Of a stretch of 64,000 nucleotides of DNA, positions 7,165 through 30,569 are shown piece by piece. The stretch is from Spirochaetia bacterium (GTDB lineage: Bacteria; Spirochaetota; Spirochaetia; UBA9216), in assembly GCA_963677925.2 (NCBI GenBank), contig CAXXYH010000003.1, forward strand, positions 1,536,001-1,600,000, read 5' to 3'. How positions within the stretch are numbered: position 1 is the first letter of the stretch; every line of letters starts with the position of its first letter. A program made the translations under genes and the position numbers. The notes beneath the pieces are model-generated. The model was not told where the DNA came from and made no database searches. It saw only the letters and a list, made by a program, of their open reading frames with translations.

Positions 7165-7196
7165 TCTCTCCTCCTAATTTTGTTTTCTGTTTATTT

Positions 7197-7244
7197 TTCC
7201 ACGGAACCGGTTCCGGTATCGGTTACGGAACCGGTTCCGTGGAA
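7197..7244. promoter_or_regulatory. Triple tandem LacI-type operator
   Basis: Three 12-bp units CGGAACCGGTTC / CGGTATCGGTTA / CGGAACCGGTTC (7202-7237); outer units are palindromic (GGAACCGGTTCC); lies just downstream of a predicted -10 for dctP. Confidence 0.75.
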
Positions 7245-7247
7245 GTT

Positions 7248-7276
7248 ACATTAAAGCATAAAATATCAGCTGTCAA
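7248..7276 (-). promoter_or_regulatory. sigma70 promoter of the TRAP operon
   Basis: TTGACA (7276-7271), 17-bp spacer, TAATGT (7253-7248). Confidence 0.65.
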
Positions 7277-7450
7277 CTTTTTTCTAAGGTAATTTGTATT
7301 ATTTTTTAACGATTTTATAAAATATGGCTGTAAAAAGCTGCATCCTTATATAGATTCGCACTTTTTTTTTATTTGTTTGATTTTGTCATGTATTAATATT
7401 AATATTTGAATATATAACAAAAAGGACCAGTAAACTACACGGAGGAAACT

Positions 7451-7954
7451 ATGCGCAACCATGGAAAACTTTTAAAAATGTTAACGATGTTTGTGGTTCT
7501 TTTACTTACAGCCACAGCAACATTCGCCTCTAACGGCGACACCATAAACATCGGAGGAACTGTCCCTTTAATTCTTAACCTGACAGTCACCCCTGACGCT
7601 GCCGCGGACAATCTTCCGCTTACCACAACCGGTGCAGATACAGCAACAACCGAAGCCCTTGCCTCAGTTACCATTTCTACAAACAATACTGCGGGATGGG
7701 AACTGTGGATATTCTCGGTCAACGGCGGTTCAATCGACAATGATGACACTGACAGTATTAACTACACCCTGACTTATGCCGGAACAGGCGGTGTGGCAAC
7801 CACAGCTCCATCAACAGCCGGAGTCCTTTTCGGACAGGCCGCAGCCGCAACAACAGACACCGCTCAGGCTCTGAACATCACCTATACCCAGTCCGCCAGT
7901 CATCCTGCCGGTTACTACTCTGATCAGCTCACTATTGTACTGAGGGCTAAATAG
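7451..7954 (+). CDS. Chaperone-usher major pilin (non-classical type)
   Basis: GGAGG RBS, signal peptide, donor-strand-like DTINIGGTV, C-terminal PAGYYSDQLTIVL as in Csu/spore-coat-U/CfaB-like pilins; first gene before chaperone and usher. Confidence 0.8.
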   Translation: MRNHGKLLKMLTMFVVLLLTATATFASNGDTINIGGTVPLILNLTVTPDAAADNLPLTTTGADTATTEALASVTISTNNTAGWELWIFSVNGGSIDNDDTDSINYTLTYAGTGGVATTAPSTAGVLFGQAAAATTDTAQALNITYTQSASHPAGYYSDQLTIVLRAK

Positions 7955-7958
7955 ACTA

Positions 7959-8702
7959 ATGCAGCTGAAAAAGATCATCCTGCCTCTTCTGCTAATAGCT
8001 GTCGCTTTTCAGCTGCAGGCCTTTAATTTTGAGCCAATCTCTCAGGACTTCACACCTTACGGACGCGGAGCAAACCGCGTTTTCAGGGTTGTCAATACCG
8101 GTAATGATAAAATTGCAGTATCCGTAAGTATTCATCCCAGATCGATTGAATATGACGGAACAGAAGTCCAGGGTGAAGAAACTGACAAGTTCATCATCTA
8201 CCCGCGCCAGATGATACTAGAAGCCGGAGAATCAAGAAGTATAAGGGTTAAATGGACCGGTGAACAGGAACTTTCCGAAGAACAGACTTTCAGAATCATA
8301 GCCGAGCAGGTTCCGGTAGCGTTCACAGAATCAACCCCTGTTGACGGAGGCAGAATCGAGCTTACTTACCGCTACGAGGGCAATGTTTATATTGTTCCCG
8401 ATACTGCAGTCGATGATATAGTTGTTGACTCTGTAAAACGCGTAACAAGGGACGAAAGAACTCTTCTGGCTGTCGAACTGACAAATCTGGGAACAAGACA
8501 TTCACTTCTAAGGGAGGCTGAGCTGACACTCAAACGGGATGAAAATGATCCATCGCCCCTGAAGCTGACAGACGAAAAAATGCAGGGACTGACCGGGGAA
8601 AACATGCTCGCAGGGATACAGAGGGTTTTTTATATCCCTGTACCCGATGGACTATGGGACGGACCTCTTTACGGAACAATAAAATATAAACCTACATACT
8701 AA
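7959..8702 (+). CDS. Periplasmic pilus chaperone (PapD/CsuC-like)
   Basis: Signal peptide; FRVVNTG, IIYPRQMILEAGESRSIRVKW, FRIIAEQVP, LTNLGTRH motifs. Confidence 0.85.
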   Translation: MQLKKIILPLLLIAVAFQLQAFNFEPISQDFTPYGRGANRVFRVVNTGNDKIAVSVSIHPRSIEYDGTEVQGEETDKFIIYPRQMILEAGESRSIRVKWTGEQELSEEQTFRIIAEQVPVAFTESTPVDGGRIELTYRYEGNVYIVPDTAVDDIVVDSVKRVTRDERTLLAVELTNLGTRHSLLREAELTLKRDENDPSPLKLTDEKMQGLTGENMLAGIQRVFYIPVPDGLWDGPLYGTIKYKPTY

Positions 8703-8716
8703 AGACAGCGGAATTT

Positions 8717-11101
8717 ATGAAAAAAGGGAATAAATCCGGAAAAGCATTAATTTTCCCTCTTTACCTTGTATTCATCATACTTTTCCCCTGTCCTTTTCTC
8801 GGTGCGCAGGATGCAGACACTGTACCTGTACCGCTCTTTATTGACGATATATATGCCGGCGAGATTTCAGCCGCTATACTGCCCGATGAATCTGTTCAGC
8901 TCAGGCCTTCTGAACTGATAGCATATCTTAGAGATCTGCTTTCAGATGAAACCATACAAACCGCAGAAATGATCTTTCCGGCGGAAGGCTGGCTCAACCT
9001 CACCGATATGGGAGGACTTGGCGTAAGAATAGTTTTCAAATTTGAAGATCTAACCCTTCATGTTTACATACCAGCACATCTTCGCCGTGAGAATGTCATA
9101 TCTCTTACGGGAAAAGAAGAAACTCCCGCAGGTAAAGAAATAACAAAACAGGATTTCAGCGCCTTTTTCAATCTCGGGCTATGGAGCCGTATTATCTATG
9201 AAACCATAACATTCGACTACTCTGTAACTCCCGAGCTTGGAATGAATATTTATGACTGGATAGCTGAAGCCCGGGGAGGAGTAAGGAGCGGCTCGGAACC
9301 TTTTTTTCTTGATTATGCCAGGGTTATTCATGACTTCAGAGCCTTATCCTACACTCTGGAGATCGGCGATGTTTCCTGGCCTGTAACAGGGTTAACAGGC
9401 ATTTCAAATATAACCGGGGCCTCATTCCGGCGGAATATCCGTATGGATCCTGATTATGACGACAGCCTGCCCTACACTAAAGAGATCTTTCTTCGTGAAC
9501 CTTCAAGGGTTGAGATATACCTTAACGATATAAAAATAAAGGAAGCTGATTATCAGAGCGGAACCTACATCTTCAATGATTTCCAGCTGTCCCGCGGTAT
9601 TAACAGGATATCCATAAAATGGCAGGACAGTGAAGGTCCGCATACAGAGGAAATGATCATTCCATATGAAAACAGTCTTCTGAAAGCCGGAGAACTTGAT
9701 ATGGGTATCTCGGCAGGAATTCCTGACCGGAACATCGTTCTTCCGGTGGTTTCTTCCTATCAGTATGCCGGACTGACCGACAGCCTGACCATGGGACTGA
9801 CGGAGGGATATAATTCGGACAACTCAGAAATCAGTATTGCAGCGGACTTTCTGTATTCTAGTAACTTCGGTACATTCAGGCTGTACCCGGAATGGGGTAT
9901 GATCTTCGGCGGAGGAATGAAAACTGCAGTGGAGCTTGGATACCAGTATCTGAATACCGGAAATGATTACTACTGGAATTTCGGAACAACAACAGGTTAC
10001 CGTTCCGACGCCATTCTGTATGCGCCTGAGACAGTTTCCTCGTTCTACTCTGATAATTATACAACACTACTGTTCCCGGGAGGCTTCAGCCTTACTCCGA
10101 GGTTTTTCTGGGAATACCGGATTGAAGAAGAAAAAAATATATTTAAACTCAGAGGCTCTTTCAAGAAAAGTATACGAGGCGGAAGTTCAATTTCTGCGAC
10201 TGTAGGGGTAGAATGGGATGACGGTCCGGCGTTTTCCGGTACCGTAAGCTTTTCTTCATCATTTCCTGAAGTTAACCAGAACCTCTACCTTCTGGAGAAT
10301 CTTGAAACACAGAAACTATCAGCCTACTGGAATAAATACGCATCGGATGCAGCAAGCGACTATACGCTGAATGTTTCAGCTGAGATACCTATCGAACTTG
10401 ATGAAAGACTTTCTCTGGGAGCCAGAGCCGGATATATACACAGTCTGTTCAACGGTTATGTATCGCATGATTTTGATACTATCATCGCGGCCGAAGAGAC
10501 CAGCAACTCAACTTCAATCTCTGCAGAGAGCGGAATAGTTTACACAGGCGGATACCTTGCTCTCACCGCACCGGTTCGGGATTCATTCATTATCATTGCA
10601 CCATCGGAGCAGTTCAGAGACAATATCCTTGATGTAAACCCCGGCACATCATCAAATATCACCGTAAGTACTTCACCCGGTGTTCTCTCCGGAGTTAATT
10701 CCTATTCCGTCAATAAGATAAATATTGAGGCCCAGGAGCTGATCCCCGGAATGGATGACAGAAATATGATGTATCATTTCACTCCTTCTTATAAATCGGC
10801 TGCAGTCATCTACCCTGAGATAGTCATAAGAGTTTACACAGGAGGCTATATCACAGATGAGGAAGGTACAGTGCTGGGGATGAAGCCAGGGCTTTTAACA
10901 GCAGAAACGTCAGAAGGAGAGCCTGTGACTGTTGAATTCTTTACCGACAAGAAGGGCTATTTCGAGGCTTATAATCTTGAACCCGGAAGGTATATACTTA
11001 AACTGGCCGGATTTGAGAATACACAAACAATTGAGATTAAAGAATCTGAAACCGGATACTATGATTCCGGAACTATTGTAATTAAGGGCAAGGGCAGATG
11101 A
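8717..11101 (+). CDS. Fimbrial outer-membrane usher
   Basis: Signal peptide; FSAFFNL, LEIGDV, plug-like PSRVEIYLND...FQLSRGINRISI, SLLKAGELDMGISAG, YAGLTDSLT; C-terminal FFTDKKGYFEAYNLEPGRY; 794 aa fits usher size. Confidence 0.82.
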   Translation: MKKGNKSGKALIFPLYLVFIILFPCPFLGAQDADTVPVPLFIDDIYAGEISAAILPDESVQLRPSELIAYLRDLLSDETIQTAEMIFPAEGWLNLTDMGGLGVRIVFKFEDLTLHVYIPAHLRRENVISLTGKEETPAGKEITKQDFSAFFNLGLWSRIIYETITFDYSVTPELGMNIYDWIAEARGGVRSGSEPFFLDYARVIHDFRALSYTLEIGDVSWPVTGLTGISNITGASFRRNIRMDPDYDDSLPYTKEIFLREPSRVEIYLNDIKIKEADYQSGTYIFNDFQLSRGINRISIKWQDSEGPHTEEMIIPYENSLLKAGELDMGISAGIPDRNIVLPVVSSYQYAGLTDSLTMGLTEGYNSDNSEISIAADFLYSSNFGTFRLYPEWGMIFGGGMKTAVELGYQYLNTGNDYYWNFGTTTGYRSDAILYAPETVSSFYSDNYTTLLFPGGFSLTPRFFWEYRIEEEKNIFKLRGSFKKSIRGGSSISATVGVEWDDGPAFSGTVSFSSSFPEVNQNLYLLENLETQKLSAYWNKYASDAASDYTLNVSAEIPIELDERLSLGARAGYIHSLFNGYVSHDFDTIIAAEETSNSTSISAESGIVYTGGYLALTAPVRDSFIIIAPSEQFRDNILDVNPGTSSNITVSTSPGVLSGVNSYSVNKINIEAQELIPGMDDRNMMYHFTPSYKSAAVIYPEIVIRVYTGGYITDEEGTVLGMKPGLLTAETSEGEPVTVEFFTDKKGYFEAYNLEPGRYILKLAGFENTQTIEIKESETGYYDSGTIVIKGKGR

Positions 11102-12048
11102 TAAAAAGAAGAAGCCTTTCAGTTTTTATTTTTCTGATAACCATAACGGCAGGGACCCCGGCCGCTGATATATTCGGGTTCAATGCACCTCCGGGAGGTG
11201 TATATTTAAACTGTTCATTTGAGCAGAATTCCGAAGTTAAGGTGGATATCACCGTTGAGCATGAGGGCGTCGGCATCAGCTCCTGGTTTATTGCTGCTGA
11301 TGAAGGAGCATCATCATCCTATGAACCAAGGCAGCTGGTTTCAGGGGGCAATACCCTTAATTATCAGATCTATAAGTCTGCGTCTCCATCCACAGAAATA
11401 ATCAAAGCGCCTCCCGAGGTACTGGCACTTTCGAATGTTGTCACTTCGGCCGATTTCTCCTCCGCGGCGGCAACTACTGAAACTCAGACATTCAGCATCT
11501 ATTTTTATGCATCTTCGGGGCAGTTTATTCCGGCCGGAACATATACTGATACAATAACCCTCTATCTTTACGAGGGCGACTATTCCAACGCCGGAACGCA
11601 TGTGCCGGTCGACAGCGTCAGCATTACCGTGAACGGGCGAATGGCCAGACTGATTGATATCTACAGTATACGTGAACCAGGAATCAGGTTCATGGATCTT
11701 ACAATAAGCCAGAGCAATAAGCTTATTGCAACAGTAAACGAACGAAGCAACTCGGCTACCGGATATACGGTTTCGGTTACAAGCTATAACCTTGAAAATG
11801 ATTCAGGCGGAGCGACCGCTCCCTTTTTCCTTCACAGCAGCGGAACCGGAAGCCTGGGATACAGCCTGACCTACGACGGAACACTGGTAGGCGGATGGTC
11901 ATCCGGCTCCGCTTTCATTACCGATTCAAATGCAACAACCCTTCCTGAATGGCTGTCAAAAGAACTTAGAATAAGCTACTCAGGAAGCCCTGTCCTGCCG
12001 GCAGGTGATTACGAAGATATTCTGACACTGACAATCAGTGCAAAATAA
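11098..12048 (+). CDS. Two-domain tip pilin/adhesin (CsuE-like architecture)
   Basis: ATGA overlap with usher stop; two domains ending PAGTYTDTITL and PAGDYEDILTLTISAK; second domain aligns by eye with the major pilin. Confidence 0.78.
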   Translation: MIKRRSLSVFIFLITITAGTPAADIFGFNAPPGGVYLNCSFEQNSEVKVDITVEHEGVGISSWFIAADEGASSSYEPRQLVSGGNTLNYQIYKSASPSTEIIKAPPEVLALSNVVTSADFSSAAATTETQTFSIYFYASSGQFIPAGTYTDTITLYLYEGDYSNAGTHVPVDSVSITVNGRMARLIDIYSIREPGIRFMDLTISQSNKLIATVNERSNSATGYTVSVTSYNLENDSGGATAPFFLHSSGTGSLGYSLTYDGTLVGGWSSGSAFITDSNATTLPEWLSKELRISYSGSPVLPAGDYEDILTLTISAK

Positions 12049-12071: not shown

Positions 12072-13055
12072 TTAGCTGGTTTTTATTCTTTCATAAAAAC
12101 CTTTGCCATAAGTTCTGGCTTCATCAAGTATTTGTGAATTGTATTCGAAAGTTTCTTCTCTTGTTTTTCCCTGGACAATATGATTCCCAAGAATGAAACT
12201 GCCGTAAGGAGCATAGGTATCAAGAGCCTTCCTTACTTCTGCCCGTCTCTGCTCTTCAGTTGCATTAACGGAAGCCGCTTCACTGTGAGTATCAAATCCT
12301 CCAATAAAACTGTATCTATCACCGTATTTTTTTATTAAAGAGACTATGTCATTCTGGGGCTGACAGGAACTCCAGGCAACAGCACCCTCTTCAAGAAAAT
12401 CTTCTATATGAATCTCAGCCTTTCCACAACAGTGATTAATAGGTTTTGCACCAATGGCTTTAATAGCGTCATTTACTCTTTTATGTTCAGGTTTTATAAA
12501 TTCCCTATACATATCCGGTGATAAAAATGGTGCCGATTTATATGCAACATCATCATATATAACAATAAAATCAGGCTTGTAGTGCTCGGCTACTATGTTA
12601 ATGAATTTTATTCGATATTCAGTATGGGCATTCAGCAGCTCATGACAGGCTTCCGGATTATCCATCATGCTAAAAATCATTGATTCATAACCCATAAGAT
12701 CTAGAAGACGCTCAAAAGTACCGTTACCCATAGCGTATTCAACAATCTGTTCTTCTCTATTCAGATTTGCCAGTTCCTTTTCTGCCTTTTCTGCCCAGTT
12801 AATAGCATCAAGATCAGGGAAAGTTACCTGCTCCCTCCATTTAGTAATATCTGTCAAAACATAATCGGAACTAGGAGTAGCACCTTCAGGCAGATGCTCC
12901 CACATTACTCCGAAGCCATCTGGTCCTCCTCCGGCAGGACCTTTCTCAAAGGAATCCATCAACCCAACATTGTAGCGAACAGGTTTAGAATAGATGGGTA
13001 CATCTTCCGGAATTCCATGGGACAGGGCTTTTAAGTAATTTTCTTTTTGTGTCAT
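12072..13055 (-). CDS. UroD/MtaA-CmuA family protein (methyltransferase-like)
   Basis: MTQKENYL, DGFGVMW, DITKWRE, YDDVAY, NHCCGK, GGFD; start at ATG 13055 after GGAGG. Confidence 0.85.
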   Translation of the reverse strand: MTQKENYLKALSHGIPEDVPIYSKPVRYNVGLMDSFEKGPAGGGPDGFGVMWEHLPEGATPSSDYVLTDITKWREQVTFPDLDAINWAEKAEKELANLNREEQIVEYAMGNGTFERLLDLMGYESMIFSMMDNPEACHELLNAHTEYRIKFINIVAEHYKPDFIVIYDDVAYKSAPFLSPDMYREFIKPEHKRVNDAIKAIGAKPINHCCGKAEIHIEDFLEEGAVAWSSCQPQNDIVSLIKKYGDRYSFIGGFDTHSEAASVNATEEQRRAEVRKALDTYAPYGSFILGNHIVQGKTREETFEYNSQILDEARTYGKGFYERIKTS

Positions 13056-13152
13056 TTTATCCTCCGTTATAATTGGGCAAGCATACAAAAAGTATATTGG
13101 ACATGCATCTATACATATCCAATATATTTTGAGGGTTCGTTTATAAGGATTA

Positions 13153-14469
13153 TCAGACTATACCCAGTAAACCTAAAGTAGCCCATACAACTGTTATTAA
13201 TGCAATTACCCATGTAGCTACAATCATCTGATTCGGCAGAGCCTGGCGGACTTTTTCATTTCCACAAGCAGCAATAGTTAAGGCACCACCAGTACTAAAT
13301 GGTGAAAGCGCGGTTGTCAATCCGCCGAAAAAGATACAGGTATAAAGCATGCCAGGATCGTATCCCAAAGTAGAAGCAATACCAGGAACCAGCGGATACA
13401 TCAGCGGCATAACCGTAGAAATGGAACTTGAGAAAAAGCTCAGGAATGCAGAGAAGAACACTATAGATCCCGGAACAAGAAACCTTGGGATGGAACTTGA
13501 AAGGGCAACTGTTATTGCTTCTACAAGACCAGCTTCTGCTGTAACTTTTATCAGCATGTATACCCCAACAATCATGATAATGGTATTTATTGGGACCCTC
13601 TTAAGAACAGCTCGCTCAGGAGCCAGTTTCATAAGGGCACAAATAACTGAACCGAAAATCATAACAACCTGAGGCTGAAACAACTGATACATCACTGCAA
13701 TGACAGGATTTCTTGGCATCCAGGCATACAGAACGCTGGGAATAACCATGCAGAAGAAAGCGATAATAACAACAATAAAAGTTTTCTTCTGAACCGGGGT
13801 AAAGGCCGGGGGATTTGCGACTTCAATTTTTTTATTTTTATAGCTCTTAAATACAAAGTAAAAGATAATTATCAGTACACCGGCAATTATTGCGGTATTG
13901 GCCCACACACGATATGCAAGTCCCATTGTTTCCATGTTTATCTGAGCTGCGTCCATACCGGAATCAACATAATTGTCTTTCATCAGATTAAGGCCTACAA
14001 TTCCGCCGAATCCGTTAAATGGGTTTGAACAACCCATAATATTACCAAAACCTATGGCTATAACTGTTAATACCGGATGAACTCCTGCGGCAATTGCGAT
14101 AACAAAAACAAATGGTCCGATAATTACACCTGTTGAAGCACCTGCACCCAATCCTCCTACTATAGCAGCTGTAATTGCTATGGCGAATGGAATAATTTTT
14201 GCATTTCCACCAAGGGCATGGAGCAGTTTTTGACCGAGAACATCCATAGTCCCGTTTTCCATTCCATAAGAGAAAAATATCCCTATTGCAATAAGATAAA
14301 AAACGATAGTTGTGGGCCAGAACCTCATTATACTCATTGCACTAAGATCAAGAATAAGTGTCCCGATAATAAATGCAAAAGCCATAGCAAAAATGCCGGT
14401 ATTAAGATTCAACTTCCAGCCCAGTAAAATTGCTGCGACAATAGCAACTATACAAATAGCAAGATTCAT
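13153..14469 (-). CDS. SLC13/ion-transporter-superfamily permease (MatC-like carboxylate carrier)
   Basis: About 12 TM segments, N-terminal LNLNTGIFA, C-terminal SPFSTGGAL. Confidence 0.75.
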   Translation of the reverse strand: MNLAICIVAIVAAILLGWKLNLNTGIFAMAFAFIIGTLILDLSAMSIMRFWPTTIVFYLIAIGIFFSYGMENGTMDVLGQKLLHALGGNAKIIPFAIAITAAIVGGLGAGASTGVIIGPFVFVIAIAAGVHPVLTVIAIGFGNIMGCSNPFNGFGGIVGLNLMKDNYVDSGMDAAQINMETMGLAYRVWANTAIIAGVLIIIFYFVFKSYKNKKIEVANPPAFTPVQKKTFIVVIIAFFCMVIPSVLYAWMPRNPVIAVMYQLFQPQVVMIFGSVICALMKLAPERAVLKRVPINTIIMIVGVYMLIKVTAEAGLVEAITVALSSSIPRFLVPGSIVFFSAFLSFFSSSISTVMPLMYPLVPGIASTLGYDPGMLYTCIFFGGLTTALSPFSTGGALTIAACGNEKVRQALPNQMIVATWVIALITVVWATLGLLGIV

Positions 14470-14925: not shown

Positions 14926-15777
14926 TTATTCGTCTTTCTTCTTTCCGGCAAATGAATGTGTAATCCTGTCAATTACGATGGCAAGAAAAACTATCGACAG
15001 GCCGGCTTCAAAACCGCGGCCTACTTCGATCCTGTTGATAGCAAGCAGAACTTCCATTCCAAGTCCCTTTGCGCCGATCATTGAACCGATAACAACCATG
15101 GCAAGAGCCATCATTGTAGTCTGGTTGATACCGACCATTATCTGAGGCTTGGCAAGCGGAAGCTGTACATCAAACAGAACCTGTCGGCTTGTAGCGCCGA
15201 AAGCCTTCGAAGCCTCAACAGCCTCTTTATCTACAGTTCTTATTCCGACATTTGTCAGCCTGATTACAGGAGGAGCGGCATAAATAATGGTCGCAAAGGT
15301 AGCAGGCACTTTCCCCATACCGAAAAACATAAGCGCAGGTATCAGATATACAAAACTCGGCATAGTCTGCATACCGTCAAGCAGTGGTTTAAGAATAGTC
15401 TCTGCCCTGTCGTTTCTGGCCATCAGTATTCCTGTCGGGATTCCAATAAGCAGAGACAGTACAACCGATGCCATCACAAGACTCAGAGTCTTCATGGCAA
15501 GCTCCCAGTAACCGAAAATGCCTATCAGCATCATTAGAACCATAAATCCTAGTCCGCTTTTCAGCCTTCCCATCAGTTTCCAGCCTGCAAAACCCACAAG
15601 CAGGATAATGACGAACCAGGGAATATATAGAAAAACTGTCTCAAATGCCATTACAACATGAAGCATTATGGATCCTATAACATCAAAAAATCCATCAAGA
15701 TGCTTTAAAAGCCATGACATTGCCGCGTCTATCCAGTCTGCAAGTGAAATAAAAGGTATATCAGGAAATTCAATCAT
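14926..15777 (-). CDS. proW: Glycine betaine/proline ABC transporter permease
   Basis: LDGMQTMPSFVYLIP, RLTNVGIR, EASKAFGA, GINQTTMMAL; start at ATG 15777 overlapping the proV end. Confidence 0.92.
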   Translation of the reverse strand: MIEFPDIPFISLADWIDAAMSWLLKHLDGFFDVIGSIMLHVVMAFETVFLYIPWFVIILLVGFAGWKLMGRLKSGLGFMVLMMLIGIFGYWELAMKTLSLVMASVVLSLLIGIPTGILMARNDRAETILKPLLDGMQTMPSFVYLIPALMFFGMGKVPATFATIIYAAPPVIRLTNVGIRTVDKEAVEASKAFGATSRQVLFDVQLPLAKPQIMVGINQTTMMALAMVVIGSMIGAKGLGMEVLLAINRIEVGRGFEAGLSIVFLAIVIDRITHSFAGKKKDE

Positions 15778-16999
15778 GTTCACCCTCCGCCGGACTGATG
15801 CTTTCAAAAATACTGTCTGTAGTCACCAGGCCCTTAAGTTTATTATCCTCATCAACAACAGGTATAGGGTATTTGTTCTCGGTGACTATTGAAAAAAGAT
15901 CTTCAAGAATGGTGTCTTCAGTTACTGAAGGAACCTGCTGTAGTGTTGCATAAAAAAGCTTCTCAACACCGGCATCTTTGTCACTGAGCTTCAGAAGTTT
16001 ATCTTCATGAGCTACGCCCATCAGCTTTTTACCCTTGTCTACGACAAAAGCAGCCTTTCTGTTATTGTCTCGAAGAATTTTGAGAGCAGTCTTCGGTCCT
16101 TCCCACCCATACAGAAGTACCTGCGGGTCGGTCATAATACTTCCTGCAGTAAGAACCTTGGCAGGTGATGCATCCTTGACGAATTCCCTGACATAGTCAT
16201 TAGCAGGGTGTGTAACGATATTCTCTGGAATATCCTCCTGAACCACCTCACCGTTACGCATTATTGCTATGCGGTCTCCAAGCTTCAAAGCCTCATGAAG
16301 GTCATGCGTAACAAAAACGATGGTCTTCTTAAGTTTGTCCTGAAGCTCAACCAGTTCATCCTGCATCTGCCTTCTGATAAGCGGATCAAGTCCGCTGAAA
16401 GGCTCATCCATCAAAAGAATTTCGGGATCATTTGCAAGCGCACGGGCAAGTCCTACTCTCTGCTGCATTCCGCCGCTGAGTGAGCCGGGATAATAATCTT
16501 CCCAGCCCTTGAGGCCTACGGTCTCAAGCGTCCGCATAGCCTTGGCATATCGCTCGCCCTTGGGGACTCCTCTGACCTTCAGTCCGTATGCTGCATTATC
16601 AAGCACGGTCAAATGAGGCAGAAGACCATAATGCTGGAAAACCATTCCGAAAGTCTTTCTTCTAAACTCAAGCAGATTTTCACTGCTCATCTTGGTAATA
16701 TCACTGCCATTAATTACGATTGAACCTGAAGTTGGATTAACAAGACGAATAAGATTTCTGATAAGTGTTGATTTGCCGCTTCCAGAGAGCCCCATAAGAA
16801 TATAAAACTCTCCCTTTCTAATATTCAGGTTGATATTCCGCATGCCAATAATGCATCCGGTTTTCTTCTGAACTTCCTCTTTACTAAGATCTCTGTATTT
16901 CTTTCCGAGAACCCTCTTGGGATCACGTCCGAAAACCTTCCAGATATCTTTTATAACAATCTGGGGCGCTTCATGCGCCCCGTCAATATTTTCAGACAT
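15770..16999 (-). CDS. proV: Glycine betaine/proline ABC transporter ATPase with CBS domains
   Basis: GLSGSGKST, LSGGMQQRVGLARAL, LLMDEPFS, C-terminal CBS pair. Confidence 0.93.
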   Translation of the reverse strand: MSENIDGAHEAPQIVIKDIWKVFGRDPKRVLGKKYRDLSKEEVQKKTGCIIGMRNINLNIRKGEFYILMGLSGSGKSTLIRNLIRLVNPTSGSIVINGSDITKMSSENLLEFRRKTFGMVFQHYGLLPHLTVLDNAAYGLKVRGVPKGERYAKAMRTLETVGLKGWEDYYPGSLSGGMQQRVGLARALANDPEILLMDEPFSGLDPLIRRQMQDELVELQDKLKKTIVFVTHDLHEALKLGDRIAIMRNGEVVQEDIPENIVTHPANDYVREFVKDASPAKVLTAGSIMTDPQVLLYGWEGPKTALKILRDNNRKAAFVVDKGKKLMGVAHEDKLLKLSDKDAGVEKLFYATLQQVPSVTEDTILEDLFSIVTENKYPIPVVDEDNKLKGLVTTDSIFESISPAEGEHD

Positions 17000-17002
17000 C
17001 GA

Positions 17003-17953
17003 TTATTCTCCGAGAGCAGCCTTCACCTTGTCTGCTACATCAGCTGAAACCCACTTGGTCCAAACATCTTCCTTGTTTTTAAGGAACCATTCTGCAGCCT
17101 GAGTTGAATCCCAGTCATTTTCATCCATTTTTGCAAGGAACTCATTGTTGTCAGCTACGGTAGTTGAATACTTTTTCAGCATTTCAACAACATCCGGAGC
17201 TTTTTCAGTCATACTTTTGTTCACGAGAATGTTGACATCGGCAGCTTCATATTCAGACCCGGGAAGTCTAACCATATCAAACTTGCCGAGAAGCGCAGTT
17301 GGAGCCCAGTAGTAACCGCAAACTGCTTCACCTTTCTGGTAGGCTCCTGCGATAACACCGATAAGAGCGGCATTTGAACCTGCTACACCAAGATTGAAAG
17401 TGTCTTCAAGATTATTGTCATTGAAGATTTTCTCTGAAATTTCCATCTGTGACCAGCCGGCAACACCTCCGTACACAATGCCTTTCTTTGGATCTTCAGG
17501 ATCCTTGAAAAGATCAGCATATTTCGGCAGATCAGCTACAGACTTAAGTCCAGGTGCAAGAGCGTCGGAACCTTCAACCACGTATCTGGGAACCCACCAG
17601 CCCTGAGGACCGTCAGGCATATTCTTTCCGAGGTCGATTATATCACCAGCTTCAATATACTTGTCGTATGCTTCCTTCCAGTTTGAGTGCCAGGATTCCA
17701 TGTCAACATCAACATCACCCTGAGCCAGACCGTTTGCAATAGGCAGAGTGTCGCCGGGAATAAACTCGGCCTTGTATCCTTCCATACCGTTTTCAATAAT
17801 GAAGGCTACAATCCGGTTATGAACCTGAACACTATCCCAGGATACATCACCGAATACGATTGTTGTTGCATCAGCATCCTGCTGCCCCCCTGCTGTTACG
17901 GCCATTGGAAGGGCAACGCAAAGCATGATTAGTAAAAACACTAATTTTCTCAT
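17003..17953 (-). CDS. proX: Glycine betaine ABC transporter substrate-binding protein
   Basis: Signal peptide (AGGQQD), SWDS, ESW, GWWVPRY, YYWAP aromatic-cage residues. Confidence 0.88.
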   Translation of the reverse strand: MRKLVFLLIMLCVALPMAVTAGGQQDADATTIVFGDVSWDSVQVHNRIVAFIIENGMEGYKAEFIPGDTLPIANGLAQGDVDVDMESWHSNWKEAYDKYIEAGDIIDLGKNMPDGPQGWWVPRYVVEGSDALAPGLKSVADLPKYADLFKDPEDPKKGIVYGGVAGWSQMEISEKIFNDNNLEDTFNLGVAGSNAALIGVIAGAYQKGEAVCGYYWAPTALLGKFDMVRLPGSEYEAADVNILVNKSMTEKAPDVVEMLKKYSTTVADNNEFLAKMDENDWDSTQAAEWFLKNKEDVWTKWVSADVADKVKAALGE

Positions 17954-22396: not shown

Positions 22397-25300
22397 TTAA
22401 TAGTAATAATTCAGATACCGGACGATATTATACAGGAAGGGTATTCCATAATAATATCCGGGAACCTTATCATAAGCCCAATAGACAAATCTGTTCTGCC
22501 TTACAACTGTGTAATAATTCGAATAATCCGGATCATCAGCATAGAAATACGTTCCGTTTGTGCCTGACGAGTTGGAATTATACAAAGACCAGCGATGTGC
22601 AATACTGTAGGGATATCCTGTAGTTGAAGTAAACATAAGAGCGTCATAATCCTCAGTGTAAAGATAGCTGTCATACAGAGGTTTATAATACATATACCGG
22701 TGCCATATATAATCATATGCGGAAGAATAAGGCTTTATGTTGGCATACTGGGTATCACCCTTGGAGTACGCGTAGTCAAGATCAGTAGGAGCGACCCCGG
22801 AACCTATTGAGTTAAGGCCCAGACTTGTCCAGTTGTTTACAAGAGTCTGAAAGAAACGCCAGCCGTAGTAGTGCATTCCCATTACTCCGTGACCGCTGTA
22901 GGCAACATTTTTTGCCCTTGTTGTACTTGCATAGAGATTGGCAGCTGACGGAGTTATTATTATCGGGTCGCCGTAGATTACAGTTTCATCTACACCGTCA
23001 TCCTTAAAGGTAGCTGGAACCTCATCTTCGGGAATCATTGTCACAGTAAACTCAGTCCATGTGTACGAACCGTTCATAAAGACGTAGCTCGGGTTTGCTG
23101 ACACCCAGTCGGTTGTTATCCTGCTCTTAAGCAGGCTTGCAAGATCTGTATCATCAGGATCATCATCGTCGTATATAATAGTCATATCCGAGCTGTACCC
23201 CAGTGAGTAACTGCTGTAATTTGTGTAGCCTATTTCAGGGTTGTAAACACGGATAAACAGATAATACGGAACTCCCTCGGTATAATAGTCGCTGTAGCTG
23301 GCAGTACTTACTGTACTCCCCTTTGTATATTTTGTTCCGGTCGGACTTGTTGCATAGTAAACATAATATGTATTGCTGCTTGATGTATCATTTCCATACT
23401 CTTCATAGTGAGTTCTGATATAACCGTTTTTAGTGTAGCCCTTGTAGGAATTATTCATCACCGGTGTTCCGTAGAAGATTGCATCACTTACCTCGGTATA
23501 GTGTGCAGCCTCCTGGGTGACGGAATTTCTTGAGTAAACCCCGGCATAATCAGAGAACTGAACAATAACCTTCTTTGAACCGTAACCGCTGTATCCGCTG
23601 GCAGTACTCAGGCTCCAGGACATGCTGGAGGAGGCTGAATACCATCCTGACCAGGAGGAACCGCCGTCATTGCTGATACGCATATAGTTTGCGCCTGAGT
23701 ATGAACTGTTCAGCGTAGCCGAGGTACTGGATGCCACTGTGCTTCCGCTGTTTATACTGAATGAAGAAACCGTCGGCTCGGCGGTATCAAGGACTATGGA
23801 ATCATAGCGGCTGATAGACACATTGCCTGCGTAATCAATAAGTTCGCAGTAGACATACTTTGTACCGTCTGTAAGCGTTACATTACCGTTCGTAAAATTC
23901 CAGCTGCTCAGTGTTGAATTGTAGACATAGGTAAGGGTGCTTCCTCCGGAGTTCCAGAACCGCATGTATCTGATATCATTTCCGGTGTAGGTTTGAGAAT
24001 TGGAACCGCTGCCTGTAATGGCTATATCAACATACTGACTTACTGTATACGAAGTACTGTTGACGGCATTTGTGGACCTATTGCTCAATAAAATTGAACT
24101 TAGGGTCGGAGCAGTCGTATCTATTTCAAGAGCCCATGTCGCAGAGTTAGACCAGTTTCCTGCAGTATCGCTTTCCTGAACATAAAAGGTATACACACCT
24201 TCGGAGTTGGATGTGTTTATTGCTATTGATGTAGTATAGGTCCAGCTTGATTCATCAAAGCTCCACCGGTAGCTGCCGTTTCCGCCTCCGCCGGATGACC
24301 AGCGAAAATACGGGGTTGTATCATTTGAAAGGTGGTAGCCGTTGCTTGTTACGCTGTATCCGGTGCTGTAGGTGTACATTACAGGTGCGCCCGGAGCTGT
24401 TGCATCTATCTGAACCGTACTTGAGGCCACCTTGCCAACCCATGAGGTGTCGCTGATGTTGTATTCTTCAACTTCGATCGTATACACATCATCATCCAGA
24501 GGGCTTCCTCCATCATAGGTTGAAAAGTCGATCATCAGAGTCGTTACATCATCAGCCAGTGTTGTCCAGCCGGTCACTTCCGCGCTGGAACTGTCAAGAA
24601 GCCTGTACCGGTAACGTTCCGTTGCAGGATTTCCAAGTCCGGTTGACCAGTTCCATGTAACCTGCCTGGCGGTACCGTAGCTGTTTCGCAGATACTCTCC
24701 CTCCCGGTTGAGTGCGGGTTCAGAGGTAAAGTCGGTGTCTATCCAGATTGCCCGGCTGCCCGATGCCGACCAGTTTCCTGCGGCATCTCTTTCCTGTACA
24801 TACATTGTATATTCATATTCGTCGCTCAGAGCTGACGATGGATAGCCGGGATAATTCGTACCGGAGGGCTCAAAGCTGAGCGATGTTGTTTCCGTCCAGT
24901 CCACAATTACTGACGAGCTGCCGTAATATGCACCGCCGTCGCTTTCCCAGTACCTGCCGACTCTCTCAAGGCGGTATCGGAATGTACCGTTTCCATTGCC
25001 GGTTCCGTACCATGACCATGTGGGAGCAACATTAGGAGTATGCGAGATCCCTGATATTACTGGGGAGGAAGGAGGAGTTGTATCCCATTCAAAGCTGACA
25101 TATCCATCAGCGCTGTTGCCTGCCATATCGGTTACAGTCAGTTTCATTTCATACTGTCCGTCTTCGGATCCATCATCAGCAGCGGATACTGTCGGTATCA
25201 GCTGATCTGCGTTTGTTATTTCAAGTTTATCCGGAGAATCGGGGTCATCCTTATTCTCAACCCATAGGTAGGAAGCTATTCCGCTTCCTGCGGAACCCGG

Positions 25301-28288
25301 ATCATCAGGGTCGTCAGCGGTTTTCTGATCATAGGCCCGGCCGTCACCGGTATCGTTGTCATTATAGTATTTGATTGTAAAGGATGAATTCTTTGGTGAG
25401 ATATCCTGCAGTTTTTCAATTACAGGAGGAAGGGTATCGATCCAGAACTCAACCATCACGCTGCCGCTTCTGTTTGCCCTGTTTCCGGCATTGTCCCATG
25501 CTGTAACATAGAAATACACAGGACCGTCATTATCACCAAGGTTGGCAGGAGTCGGTGCTGAAATATAGGGAATATCCGAACGCATATAGTTTTTATTCTC
25601 GTAGCTTGCAGTATTATCCCAATCTACTTCGTCATCATCCCAGTGCGGATACCATCCGCCGACGCCATAGGCTACACCGGGATCCGTATTCGGATCGAGG
25701 GTCTGATAGTAAGGAATAGTGGTGTAAAAATCAGCTCCGTCTGCAGCAGCCCACACTATGTAGGGTATAGCTGATGAGGTATATGCCATTACAGCTGATG
25801 CTGATGTATTGAGCACAGTGTCATCCTGATTATAGGCTGTCAGGGTTCCGACATCGGCCGGATCAACTGTATCCCATACAAAATCAACTATGTTATAGCT
25901 TGAGTTTCCGGCATTATCGGTTGCGGTTACCTTTATCTCGTAGCTGCCGTCTTCACTTCCGTCCGAGGCTCCGGCCTTGATATAGGGCTGCTCAACGCTG
26001 CTGTCCCCGGTAGTTCCGGCACTGTCTGAATAAAAGGTCAGCGTCCCCGGACCGCTGAGCTGTTCCCATAGGTATGAAGCAATTCCGCTAGGAACCTGGT
26101 AGGCTTCAGAATCTACCGGGTGGGTATCTGTGATAGTTACTGTCTGCCGGATTATCGAGTTTGTTTCAAGGTAATCTGTATCTGAAAAAGATACAGAGGG
26201 CTCAGTGTAGTCAAGGATGACAACAGCGTAAACATCATTGGCACCTTCGTCCTGAAGTCCCGACAGATTACCAACATAATCCTTAACTTCAGCATAAACG
26301 TAGTACTGCCCTTCACCTGATGACAGAGCTACCTCGGGTTTAAGAGAGGACCAGGCCTCCCATGAGCCGGAATCGGAGGAAGGCATATTCAGAGCACTGG
26401 CGGCTTCCACCGACAGCCACATGTACTGAAGCCCGGACTGCAAGTCCTCGGCATCTATTACAACATTAACGGTTTCTCCGGAGTTGTTTGAGTACCCAGT
26501 ACCGTTATCGATCTGCAGACCGTTCAAAACAGGTGCAGTTGTATCAAGGCTGACTTTAAGTCTGCCCGGGGTTTCCGATTCATTATTGGCATAATCGACG
26601 AAGCGGTAGTAAATGTAGTGATCGCCGTCATTCGCCTGCAGTTCCCATCCTGCGGAAGCATATGCGGTATTGTAGCTCATGTAGTCTATACCGCCGCCCG
26701 TAGTTCCTCCCTCGGAGTACAGTTTCCAGGCGGCATCGCCTTCAAAAGTCGGGAAACCGGCGCCTATATTGTCGCCCCAGATCTTCACCGCACGGACACC
26801 GTTATAATCATCCTCGGCCTTAATCTCAAGATCAAAGGTAGCGGATGCTGTAGCATTGACCGAAGGTGAATCAAGATTCAGCACTATCACGCCCTCAGGC
26901 GCGGTATTATCCTCAAAGGCTCCGTTTGCAAAGCTGTAGGTGTAATCTGAACCTATTGCATTTCCTGCCACATCGGAAACAGTTCCGCTTATAAAGACAT
27001 TGTATTCAGTGCTCTGCTCCAGAGTATAGGATTCACCGCCCAGTTCGAATTCGGTAAACTCAATTCCGGACTTGTCGTCAATGTATTCATAAACCGAGGT
27101 TGAGATCTTCTGGATGCCCTTGGTAACATAGACAGTAGTGCTGTCTATTGTTGTTGTATCCATCTCTTCAGAGAAAACTACTTTAACATAGGCCTTTGTT
27201 CTGTTTCCGGTTGAATCAGGAACAGGGTTTGAAAGATCAAAGTCCACCTGAGGAGGTGTGAAATCATAAACAATGGAACTGGAAGTTTCCCCGGACTCAT
27301 TAAGAGCCGTGTCACGAACCTGCAGATAGAGGGTTTCAGTTTCATTTGTATTCACAGAAAGAGAGTAATCACTGATGCTCGTACTGCCGCCGTCCAGTGT
27401 CAGCCAGTCGCTCCAGCTGCCGCCTTCGGTTCTAATCCGGTAGTCGCCCATGCCGCTTCCTGTCTCTTCATCAACCCCCAGAATATCTATCGATATTTCA
27501 CTGTTGCGGGTTCCGGCTTTTCCGCCTTCAAGCGAGAACTGTGCAATTTCGGGCATGGTTGTATCAAGACCAATTGAATCGGAACCGTAGCCTGAAGATT
27601 CAAGCCCGGAACCGTCTTTCAGTTTCACATATACGGTCTTCTGGCCGTCGCCTTCTGGAAAGGTTATATCAAATGATGAGCTCCAGGTGATCCATCCTGA
27701 ATCAGAGAAGTTTCCGTTTGTTGAAATATTCATCTGGGCTATTCCGAAGTTATCAGTCGCATCAACCTCAACCGTAGCCGTAAGCTGGTTTGTCCAGGAA
27801 TCTCCGTTATTTATTGTGACTCCGGAAATAGCAGGCCTTACTGTGTCGCCCTCTATTCCCGTGGTAAAAGACCAAGTATAGACCTCGGATATAAGATTAC
27901 CGTCCAAATCCTTGATTCCGTTAATAGTGACTTCGTATTCTGTGCCGACTTCCAGTTCCGAATTTGGAATGAATGTAATGGTATCATTCTCAACTTTACG
28001 TGAACCGCTTATTGCGTTGCCGCCTGCATCTGTTACATAAAAACTTGCAGAAACTACTGTGCTGGAATCAATATACTTCGAGAAGGTCACAGATATCGTA
28101 CTCAGGTTAATAGGGACATCCTCAGTATCACGTTCCGGGTAGATTGAAACAACTTCCGGAGGGGAAATGGCCTTGTCCACATCCTCTTCAATATAGGCAA
28201 GCAGGGGATTTTTACAGCTGATAAAAACTGCGGATGCAGCAAGCAGCAGTACAGAAACAACTATCTTTATCATTGTAATTCTTTTCAC
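22397..28288 (-). CDS. Giant (~1960 aa) Ig-like repeat lipoprotein, probable surface adhesin/S-layer-like protein
   Basis: Lipobox LLLAASAVFISC; Big_5/SbsA-like N-terminal domain; many repeats ending D-x-AGN...DTT-x-P; Tyr/Ser-rich C-terminus; GTG start at 28288 after GAGGAG. Confidence 0.82.
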   Translation of the reverse strand: MKRITMIKIVVSVLLLAASAVFISCKNPLLAYIEEDVDKAISPPEVVSIYPERDTEDVPINLSTISVTFSKYIDSSTVVSASFYVTDAGGNAISGSRKVENDTITFIPNSELEVGTEYEVTINGIKDLDGNLISEVYTWSFTTGIEGDTVRPAISGVTINNGDSWTNQLTATVEVDATDNFGIAQMNISTNGNFSDSGWITWSSSFDITFPEGDGQKTVYVKLKDGSGLESSGYGSDSIGLDTTMPEIAQFSLEGGKAGTRNSEISIDILGVDEETGSGMGDYRIRTEGGSWSDWLTLDGGSTSISDYSLSVNTNETETLYLQVRDTALNESGETSSSIVYDFTPPQVDFDLSNPVPDSTGNRTKAYVKVVFSEEMDTTTIDSTTVYVTKGIQKISTSVYEYIDDKSGIEFTEFELGGESYTLEQSTEYNVFISGTVSDVAGNAIGSDYTYSFANGAFEDNTAPEGVIVLNLDSPSVNATASATFDLEIKAEDDYNGVRAVKIWGDNIGAGFPTFEGDAAWKLYSEGGTTGGGIDYMSYNTAYASAGWELQANDGDHYIYYRFVDYANNESETPGRLKVSLDTTAPVLNGLQIDNGTGYSNNSGETVNVVIDAEDLQSGLQYMWLSVEAASALNMPSSDSGSWEAWSSLKPEVALSSGEGQYYVYAEVKDYVGNLSGLQDEGANDVYAVVILDYTEPSVSFSDTDYLETNSIIRQTVTITDTHPVDSEAYQVPSGIASYLWEQLSGPGTLTFYSDSAGTTGDSSVEQPYIKAGASDGSEDGSYEIKVTATDNAGNSSYNIVDFVWDTVDPADVGTLTAYNQDDTVLNTSASAVMAYTSSAIPYIVWAAADGADFYTTIPYYQTLDPNTDPGVAYGVGGWYPHWDDDEVDWDNTASYENKNYMRSDIPYISAPTPANLGDNDGPVYFYVTAWDNAGNRANRSGSVMVEFWIDTLPPVIEKLQDISPKNSSFTIKYYNDNDTGDGRAYDQKTADDPDDPGSAGSGIASYLWVENKDDPDSPDKLEITNADQLIPTVSAADDGSEDGQYEMKLTVTDMAGNSADGYVSFEWDTTPPSSPVISGISHTPNVAPTWSWYGTGNGNGTFRYRLERVGRYWESDGGAYYGSSSVIVDWTETTSLSFEPSGTNYPGYPSSALSDEYEYTMYVQERDAAGNWSASGSRAIWIDTDFTSEPALNREGEYLRNSYGTARQVTWNWSTGLGNPATERYRYRLLDSSSAEVTGWTTLADDVTTLMIDFSTYDGGSPLDDDVYTIEVEEYNISDTSWVGKVASSTVQIDATAPGAPVMYTYSTGYSVTSNGYHLSNDTTPYFRWSSGGGGNGSYRWSFDESSWTYTTSIAINTSNSEGVYTFYVQESDTAGNWSNSATWALEIDTTAPTLSSILLSNRSTNAVNSTSYTVSQYVDIAITGSGSNSQTYTGNDIRYMRFWNSGGSTLTYVYNSTLSSWNFTNGNVTLTDGTKYVYCELIDYAGNVSISRYDSIVLDTAEPTVSSFSINSGSTVASSTSATLNSSYSGANYMRISNDGGSSWSGWYSASSSMSWSLSTASGYSGYGSKKVIVQFSDYAGVYSRNSVTQEAAHYTEVSDAIFYGTPVMNNSYKGYTKNGYIRTHYEEYGNDTSSSNTYYVYYATSPTGTKYTKGSTVSTASYSDYYTEGVPYYLFIRVYNPEIGYTNYSSYSLGYSSDMTIIYDDDDPDDTDLASLLKSRITTDWVSANPSYVFMNGSYTWTEFTVTMIPEDEVPATFKDDGVDETVIYGDPIIITPSAANLYASTTRAKNVAYSGHGVMGMHYYGWRFFQTLVNNWTSLGLNSIGSGVAPTDLDYAYSKGDTQYANIKPYSSAYDYIWHRYMYYKPLYDSYLYTEDYDALMFTSTTGYPYSIAHRWSLYNSNSSGTNGTYFYADDPDYSNYYTVVRQNRFVYWAYDKVPGYYYGIPFLYNIVRYLNYYY

Positions 28289-28292
28289 CTGC

Positions 28293-30392: not shown

Positions 30393-30569
30393 TTCAGTTC
30401 TCCTGATAAAGCTGTACACGTTTACATAATTTACATTCAGTTTACATTATAAATATATTACAATTTTACTAGTTTATAAACAAAAAGATCAAATTACTGG
30501 TATTAATTTCAATACCAGAGCCTCAATTTCCGGCAGATTCATTTTATCGGCCGTTGGCCGAATTTACCC

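Follow-up and report, generated by a model that had tools for sequence, protein, structure and literature searches.

Organization of the Locus

The window analyzed here is the whole 64,000-nucleotide (64-kb) stretch of contig CAXXYH010000003.1 (positions 1,536,001 to 1,600,000 of the forward strand) in the Spirochaetia bacterium assembly GCA_963677925.2. It contains an operon for a real, divergent archaic-type chaperone-usher system with variant features: a pilin that lacks the disulfide bond and belongs to a family outside Pfam, an usher that falls below the Pfam threshold, and a host from a new phylum. Four open reading frames (ORFs), all on the plus strand and arranged head to tail, span positions 7451-12048. 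They encode a major pilin of 167 amino acids (aa) without cysteine (7451-7954), a PapD-like periplasmic chaperone of 247 aa, also without cysteine (7959-8702), an outer-membrane usher of 794 aa (8717-11101), and a two-domain minor subunit of 316 aa (11098-12048). The first three ORFs are separated by 4 and 14 nucleotides (nt), and the third and fourth overlap in an ATGA. An earlier interpretation of this DNA, hereafter the sequence-only reading, had described tight packing in the order pilin-chaperone-usher-tip pilin, and the ORFs and their spacings were found to be as described.

Chance does not account for the tight spacing and gene order, as the same order recurs in related spirochete loci and in the sigma operons of Ralstonia, Acinetobacter, and Rhizobium. 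The sigma operons used for comparison came from plasmids, with three genes annotated in Ralstonia and all four in A. variabilis and Rhizobium, and the comparison further included the csu operon. All three plasmid operons share the four-gene order of the spirochete operon, and the sizes of the products are similar: ~155-173 aa for the subunit, ~780-800 aa for the usher, and ~320-330 aa for the two-domain SCPU protein.

Components of the System

The chaperone passes the Pfam PapD_N cut-off, scoring 29.5 bits against a cut-off of 23. As a single sequence compared with the PDB, its best match is CsuC (E 0.0025), and a profile built from 35 sequences matches both domains of CsuC over residues 45-225 (E 7.1e-6). 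Together, the PapD_N score and the two-domain match establish the PapD-like fold. After CsuC, the profile retrieves EcpB (E 0.0019), 4ncd (E 0.002), and CfaA (E 0.017), whereas classical chaperones are absent at E<=1. A set of 27 reference components was also scored with the spirochete profiles (pilin, chaperone, and fourth protein), a database so small that the results are given in bits and not as E-values. With the chaperone profile, the Leptolyngbya chaperone scores 219 bits and that of a Vibrio plasmid 108 bits, followed by four sigma chaperones at 29-32 bits (CsuC at 32), EcpB at 21 bits, EcpE at 16 bits, and FimC at 0 bits. Both the PDB ranking and the profile scores place the chaperone nearer to archaic chaperones than to those of the alternate or classical classes.

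The major pilin begins with a signal peptide (residues 1-27 of the protein encoded at 7451-7954, plus strand), followed by a conserved N-terminal extension (residues ~28-41) that carries the motif NGDT-NIGG-VPL and is a candidate donor strand. The remainder is an Ig-like core whose C-terminal end reads ...YYSDQLTIVLRAK. No Pfam or NCBIfam family matches this protein, and the SCPU family fails to match even at E 0.1. A Pfam domain is likewise absent from all 65 pilin homologues, and the pilin profile finds no meaningful match in the PDB by sequence. In the AlphaFold2 (AF2) model, which has a predicted local distance difference test score (pLDDT) of 90.1, a signal helix (residues 2-27) and an unstructured segment (28-41) precede a beta sandwich that runs to the C-terminus with its last strand (160-166). 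The top Foldseek matches of this model are exclusively chaperone-usher pilins, led by the pilin domain of CfaE (E 6.9e-4) and CsuA/B (E 8.6e-4), with CfaB, CS17, CooA, and the Csu pilus next. This agrees with the expectation that the protein is a subunit with an incomplete Ig fold.

Conservation within the pilin family points to the same regions. The alignment contains 27 invariant columns, which cluster at the N-terminal extension and the C-terminal strand. At the mature N-terminus these are G29, N33, I34, G35, G36, V38, L40, L42, and L44, and in the C-terminal strand G154, Y155, Y156, D158, L160, V163, L164, R165, and A166. The two clusters appear to sit where a donor strand and the strand that pairs with it would be expected. 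A pilin-like fold combined with a conserved, unstructured N-terminal extension is consistent with donor-strand complementation. For one pilin homologue (P0079), the nearest ESM Atlas clusters by language-model features (0.96) are families of 169-186 aa labelled as Acidobacteriota and Gemmatimonadota. A cluster of the Csu-type SCPU kind is matched at a template modelling (TM) score of 0.58. These matches offer a lead to similar pilins without Pfam domains in other environmental diderm phyla.

The fourth protein combines an N-terminal SCPU domain (residues 64-155, positions 11287-11562, plus strand) with a C-terminal domain homologous to the pilin (residues 205-316, positions 11710-12045, plus strand). 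It passes the Pfam SCPU cut-off of 22.4 bits with 54.4 bits for the whole protein and 46 bits for residues 1-165 alone. The C-terminal domain has no SCPU match even at E 0.1, and neither do the ORFs in the major-pilin position of four other spirochete loci (L024, L025, L030, and L032) at the same threshold. The SCPU subunit signature of archaic pili is therefore present in the N-terminal domain of the fourth protein and absent from its C-terminal domain and from the major pilin. As proposed in the sequence-only reading, the second domain aligns with the major pilin, both by BLASTP (32% identity over 113 columns, E 4e-6) and when the two families were compared as profiles (probability 96.3%, E 1.8e-9, residues 61-167 of the pilin against 205-316). 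A G-x-Y-x-D-x-(I/L)-T motif ends both domains, and the mature N-terminus lacks the NGDT-NIGG-VPL motif of the pilin. Its two domains and the lack of a donor motif at its mature N-terminus fit a subunit that would be incorporated first and is probably located at the tip. By sequence it has no meaningful match in the PDB.

The 794-aa usher does not reach the Pfam Usher cut-off, and a partial match to the NCBIfam PefC/AfrB family (E 4.3e-6) is found. In the usher-family alignment, Pfam Usher matches 7 of the 13 members at E<0.01, and some members give weak matches to the TcfC E-set domain. All six relatives that were scanned (two cyanobacterial ushers and those from Leptolyngbya, Vibrio, Bdellovibrionota, and Spirochaetaceae) pass the Pfam cut-off, and four of them contain a C-terminal domain resembling CarboxypepD_reg that scores below its own cut-off.

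Structure identifies the usher more clearly. The AF2 model, built on the 13-member alignment (pLDDT 75.8), aligns over its full length with FimD and PapC in Foldseek (824 columns, best E 2.8e-30), and all 17 of the best listed matches (ranks 1-19) are FimD or PapC. The translocation domains of these proteins are matched with TM scores (TMt) of 0.54-0.57, and the structural alignment with FimD has 12% sequence identity. PapC and FimD are built as a 24-strand barrel with a plug. The spirochete model has the same architecture, with the strands counted from the DSSP list of the model and not from coordinates. An N-terminal domain (residues ~34-117) precedes a barrel (~147-610) made of six strands (147-239) and eighteen further strands (327-610), between which lies a plug-like insert of six strands (255-315). 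Two C-terminal beta-sandwich domains follow (~613-788), the last of which resembles CarboxypepD_reg. In addition, residues 206-334 of the usher profile align to the plug region of FimD. The prediction of a 24-strand, plugged usher is borne out by this model.

Classification

The relationships of the usher were examined in a quick maximum-likelihood tree of 29 ushers and 794 columns, for which warnings of long branches and uneven composition were raised. All 14 spirochete ushers group together, with a Shimodaira-Hasegawa approximate likelihood ratio test (SH-aLRT) support of 91. They are joined by the ushers of Leptolyngbya and Delongbacteria (80) and then by the Vibrio plasmid usher (94) to form a group of 18. 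This group is separate from the Csu-type sigma ushers (99, starred) and the classical ushers (99, starred), which join each other at 98 (starred), and the alternate ushers form a long branch of their own (100, starred). Forcing all sigma-like ushers together costs 14.9 log-likelihood units, with an approximately unbiased test p-value (p-AU) of 0.040; as the group was named after the tree had been seen, this is not a clean rejection.

The profiles of the pilin, chaperone, and fourth protein give a common ranking, with Leptolyngbya first, then the Vibrio plasmid, the Csu-type sigma systems, the alternate Ecp system, and classical Fim last. Taking all components together, the cyanobacterial, Delongbacteria, and Vibrio plasmid systems are the nearest. 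The sequence-only reading implied an usher outside the characterized clades, and in the tree it is nested within none of the Csu-type, classical, or alternate groups. That reading had further proposed a divergent class mixing archaic and alternate parts. The divergence stands but the mixture does not, since the operon has the standard sigma layout and its components resemble archaic parts more than alternate ones, and alternate more than classical ones.

The lineage is shared with Cyanobacteria, Bdellovibrionota, and Delongbacteria, and the class is not peculiar to spirochetes. Searched against 1.84 billion proteins, the usher profile recovers 4782 representative clusters at E<=1e-3, of which 1286 reach E<=1e-30. 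Twenty of the top 150 clusters were looked up, and the four that carry an organism name come from a Spirochaetaceae bacterium, a Xenococcaceae cyanobacterium, Cyanobacterium stanieri PCC 7202, and a Bdellovibrionota bacterium. The spirochete operon is one divergent offshoot of this archaic-like lineage, which is large and mostly environmental. In two earlier papers, archaic systems are said to occur "in a wide range of phyla" (PMC9452303) and are listed for Proteobacteria, Cyanobacteria, and Deinococcus-Thermus (PMC4654587).

Comparison with Known Systems

Among characterized systems, the Csu pili of Acinetobacter baumannii (csuA/B-A-B-C-D-E) have the same parts list as the spirochete operon. 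CsuC is the best solved relative of the chaperone, CsuA/B is among the best structural matches of the pilin model, and Csu-type and spirochete subunits have a C-terminal G-Y-x-D-x-L/I-T motif in common. However, the spirochete pilin lacks the cysteine pair and is not recognized by Pfam SCPU, the spirochete subunits end in Lys where those of the Csu type end in an aromatic residue, the tree separates the usher from CsuD and its Csu-type counterparts, and the spirochete host has no detectable Dsb enzymes.

For every component, the closest named relatives outside the spirochetes are cyanobacterial (a plasmid of Leptolyngbya sp. BL0902, Cyanobacterium stanieri, and Xenococcaceae). A 179-aa Leptolyngbya protein scores 28.9 bits against the spirochete pilin profile, contains no cysteine, and also ends in Lys. 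Cyanobacterial and spirochete ushers have the CarboxypepD_reg-like C-terminal domain in common, but the cyanobacterial ushers pass the Pfam Usher cut-off and the spirochete usher does not. The best-known members of the lineage are probably the cyanobacterial clusters of the CccS/CccP/Slr0019 type (PMC4390875). CccS and CccP of Synechocystis are reported to affect the construction of the cell surface and have not been tied to a defined pilus (PMC4390875). In one uncultured cyanobacterium, represented by a metagenome-assembled genome (MAG; locus L051), the gene for an 899-aa usher homologue is not preceded on its strand by any chaperone or pilin ORF of at least 110 aa. This recalls the split arrangement that has been reported in Synechocystis, with the usher gene located away from cccS and cccP.

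As for alternate pili (the CFA/I-CS1 class and ECP), CfaE, CfaB, and CooA are among the top structural matches of the pilin model. EcpB and CfaA are weaker matches to the chaperone than CsuC, EcpB and EcpE score 21 and 16 bits against 29-32 bits for the Csu type, the alternate ushers form a separate clade, and no CS1-type C-terminal domain was found in the spirochete system, so that the operon does not belong to the alternate class. With classical pili (type 1 Fim, P, Mrk, Pef, and F4), the system shares the overall usher fold, as reflected in the FimD and PapC structural matches. In contrast, FimC scores 0 bits, none of the three spirochete profiles (pilin, chaperone, and fourth protein) shows similarity to a classical part, and the classical ushers form a separate, starred clade, which places the operon outside the classical class as well.

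Host and Distribution

The host genome comprises 5.04 Mb in four contigs (99.63% complete, 3.64% contamination), and the window lies in contig 3. FlaA is the sheath protein of the periplasmic flagella of spirochetes. Four FlaA matches are found in the host genome, one of them on the window's own contig, and none in 14 control genomes. A 97%-identical usher comes from a MAG of a Spirochaetia bacterium, and other relatives come from a Spirochaetia bacterium and a Spirochaeta sp. All named chaperone and usher homologues of the close family are assigned to Spirochaetales, Spirochaetia, Spirochaetota, Spirochaetaceae, or Candidatus Thalassospirochaeta. The host is thus a spirochete, as had been proposed from the DNA, and not a proteobacterium.

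In the host's GTDB order, which consists of one family with 11 genomes including the host itself (G000), the usher profile finds matches at E<=1e-8 in seven; the four genomes without a match are 81-96% complete. Across 401 Spirochaetota genomes, again including G000, the usher is found in the host and six others (G143, G210, G317, G371, G374, and G377), and the chaperone profile recovers the same seven. A convincing usher therefore occurs in 6 of the 400 Spirochaetota genomes other than the host, and the system is rare in the phylum although present in at least five families. Eighteen further weak matches to the usher profile cover the C-terminal domain only and were not counted; 16 are in family f20 (E 4e-5 to 4e-4), and the other two are in G032 (family f36) and G134 (family f19), with E 6e-4 to 9e-4. 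Family f20, with 75 genomes, was considered as a group of usher carriers and rejected, the matches being confined to residues 669-769 and unaccompanied by a chaperone match. In its genus g91 (for example, L012-L016), 16 genomes of ~4 Mb encode proteins of ~580-625 aa that have only the usher-like CarboxypepD_reg domain.

The order pilin-chaperone-usher-two-domain subunit is kept in the loci of the host family (L001, L029, L030, L031, and L032), across which usher identity falls from 97% to about 24-32%, and the same four-gene order is found in two more distant spirochete loci (L024 and L025). Three genomes of family f12 encode N-terminally extended ushers of 1095 aa (L026, genome G371), 1146 aa (L027, G377), and 1247 aa (L028, G374). 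In L028, four pilin-like ORFs of 210-214 aa and an ORF of 498 aa downstream of the usher replace the two-domain subunit. Public annotation already labels some of the homologues as fimbrial chaperone or usher. Literature searches, with most subscription journals outside their coverage, returned no description of chaperone-usher systems or pili in spirochetes.

Absence of the Pilin Disulfide

As noted in the sequence-only reading, the pilin and the chaperone contain no cysteine; the usher and the fourth protein contain one each. Cys25 of the usher lies in the N-terminal hydrophobic leader. It was considered as a lipoprotein cysteine and rejected, being missing in 6 of 13 close homologues and variable in position in the rest. 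Cys39 of the fourth protein is replaced by Ser in the three closest relatives and is absent in all six aligned relatives. Cysteine is also scarce in the wider pilin family. For the 61 of 65 homologues with a recognizable mature start, the mature part contains none in 55, one in five, and two in one, and the distant spirochete pilins (L024, L025, L030, and L032) have none beyond the leader.

Csu-type subunits are different. The mature part contains two cysteines in CsuA/B, CsuA, CsuB, and the pilins of Ralstonia, A. variabilis, and Rhizobium alike, and the two-domain proteins of the loci compared have 5 to 8. The cysteines have been described as "invariant for archaic pilin domain", with a C16-C62 bridge in CsuA/B (Pakharukova et al., 2015, PMC4654587). 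Every Csu-type pilin compared carries this pair. The spirochete pilin lacks the cysteine pair that forms the A-B disulfide of archaic pilins. The CfaB and CooA pilins are not known to carry disulfides either, in line with the sequence-only reading.

The machinery for making such bonds was sought in the host with Pfam-level searches of this one assembly. No match was found to DSBA, DsbB, VKOR, or Thioredoxin_4, and none to a haem-copper oxidase (COX1) or cytochrome bd, in searches that each matched 3 to 9 of 14 control genomes. Because there are no matches to Dsb or VKOR proteins or to a terminal oxidase, the gene content supports a host that is an anaerobe without a periplasmic pathway for disulfide formation, and the missing pilin disulfide fits a Dsb-less host.

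Proposed Function and Alternative Explanations

The operon probably encodes a working chaperone-usher pathway in which donor-strand complementation and exchange would assemble the 167-aa pilin into a thin fiber with the two-domain protein as its cap. In such a pathway, all four proteins would be exported by Sec. The PapD-like chaperone would capture the subunits in the periplasm, lending a strand to their incomplete Ig fold. The 167-aa pilins would then polymerize beneath the two-domain cap as the extension of the next subunit (NGDT-NIGG-VPL-L-L) replaces the chaperone strand. The subunits would manage without the Csu-type A-B disulfide, in keeping with a host without detectable periplasmic disulfide-forming enzymes. 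The role of the fiber is likely to be in adhesion or biofilm formation.

Several observations weigh against this interpretation. The operon's own usher fails the Pfam Usher cut-off, the Foldseek values of the pilin are modest (E 6.9e-4, TM 0.44-0.55), and the major pilin is matched neither by SCPU nor, by sequence, by any solved structure. The closest cyanobacterial homologue of the pilin, the Leptolyngbya protein of 179 aa, is also free of cysteine, and its host is oxygenic. Cysteine loss is therefore not restricted to anaerobes, and it may characterize the lineage as a whole instead of being an adaptation to anaerobic life. Elsewhere in the lineage, the pilin-like proteins of Delongbacteria have one cysteine each, and the proteins of the Vibrio plasmid retain a pair.

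The same mechanics could also build a surface layer that is not a pilus, such as an amorphous coat or a component of a capsule or sheath, with no hair-like fiber. The SCPU domain takes its name from spore coat protein U, and the model for such a coat would be spore coat protein U itself or the capsule-like polyadhesins. SCPU is the only Pfam subunit signature in the operon, the literature searches found no report of spirochete pili, and the related CccS and CccP of Synechocystis have been connected with cell-surface construction and with no defined pilus (PMC4390875). Nevertheless, the operon is arranged like the Csu-like pilus operons compared, with a major subunit, a chaperone, an usher, and a two-domain protein; the two-domain subunit without a donor motif suggests a tip; and the solved archaic systems, Csu and CupE, are reported to form thin pili (PMC9452303, PMC10104325). 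A coat is therefore an unlikely product of the operon, though the least improbable of the alternatives.

Two other explanations, each very improbable, concern the origin and the state of the operon. If it were a recent horizontal acquisition or a contaminant from another organism, the assignment to a spirochete host would be misleading. In favor of such an origin, the genes around the operon encode unrelated transporters, relatives have other flanks, and few genomes of the phylum contain the system (6 of the other 400). Its nearest non-spirochete relatives are from Cyanobacteria, Delongbacteria, and Bdellovibrionota, and the guanine plus cytosine content is 45-46% in the operon against 40-42% in the segments on either side. 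On the other hand, the window lies inside one of only four contigs of a genome that is 99.6% complete, the usher occurs in 7 of the 11 order genomes, the 14 spirochete ushers form a single group in the tree (SH-aLRT 91), and all named close homologues are from spirochetes. Contamination of the assembly is thereby excluded. An ancient transfer of the operon between phyla may have taken place. Alternatively, the operon could be a decaying or silent remnant that builds nothing, as the sub-threshold usher might indicate. A remnant would hardly be expected to have four intact frames with translational coupling kept in the ATGA overlap, invariant columns conserved among relatives at about 35-50% identity, and usher matches free of stops in six of the seven order genomes.

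A functional fiber-forming system being the preferred interpretation, a broader proposal can be made more tentatively. The spirochete operon and its relatives from Cyanobacteria, Delongbacteria, Bdellovibrionota, and the Vibrio plasmid would form a separate deep lineage, as a sister group of the Csu-type sigma clade and not a branch within it, with pilins that lack Pfam domains and disulfides and have basic ends, and this lineage would build the first non-flagellar surface fiber described in spirochetes. This is possible, but doubtful as a whole. If it were true, the spirochete pilus would sit on the outer membrane that overlies the periplasmic flagella.

Structural and functional work on chaperone-usher systems rests almost wholly on Proteobacteria. 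The operon adds a complete archaic-type system, conserved in one small spirochete order, from a phylum in which the literature searched describes no such pili, and the thousands of representative clusters related to its usher indicate a large, uncharacterized environmental branch. It also indicates that archaic pilins can do without the disulfide that was supposed to be invariant, here in a host without detectable Dsb or VKOR machinery, and so provides a natural test of the folding and stability of archaic pilins without the A-B bond. The practical impact is modest, as some homologues are already annotated automatically and no departure from the known mechanism is expected.

Neighboring Genes and Upstream Region

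The upstream neighbor of the operon is the TRAP transporter gene dctP and the downstream neighbor encodes a URO-D family protein. As both lie on the minus strand, the four-gene operon stands alone. The URO-D family protein (338 aa) and an adjoining carrier of the MatC/CitMHS type (438 aa) occupy positions 12072-14469 on the minus strand, convergent with the pilus operon, and genes for a glycine-betaine-type ATP-binding cassette (ABC) transporter lie further downstream (14926-17953).

Upstream, the divergent intergenic region between the dctP and pilin genes (7165-7450) presumably contains the promoter of the operon. A scan for promoters and terminators found sites no more frequent than in shuffled sequence, and no promoter was assigned; Rfam and tRNA scans of the 64-kb window gave no match. 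The region contains a perfect 19-nt inverted repeat with arms at 7197-7215 and 7226-7244, 10 nt apart (TTCCACGGAACCGGTTCCG and CGGAACCGGTTCCGTGGAA). This repeat (7197-7244) may be an operator or a bidirectional element.

Elsewhere in the window, a protein of 1970 aa with Big_5, Big_13, and PKD-like Ig domains is encoded at 22397-28309 on the minus strand, and its upstream end is overlapped by the gene for a 708-aa tetratricopeptide repeat (TPR) protein (28293-30419, minus strand). The 1970-aa protein is a candidate for a second giant surface protein in the window.

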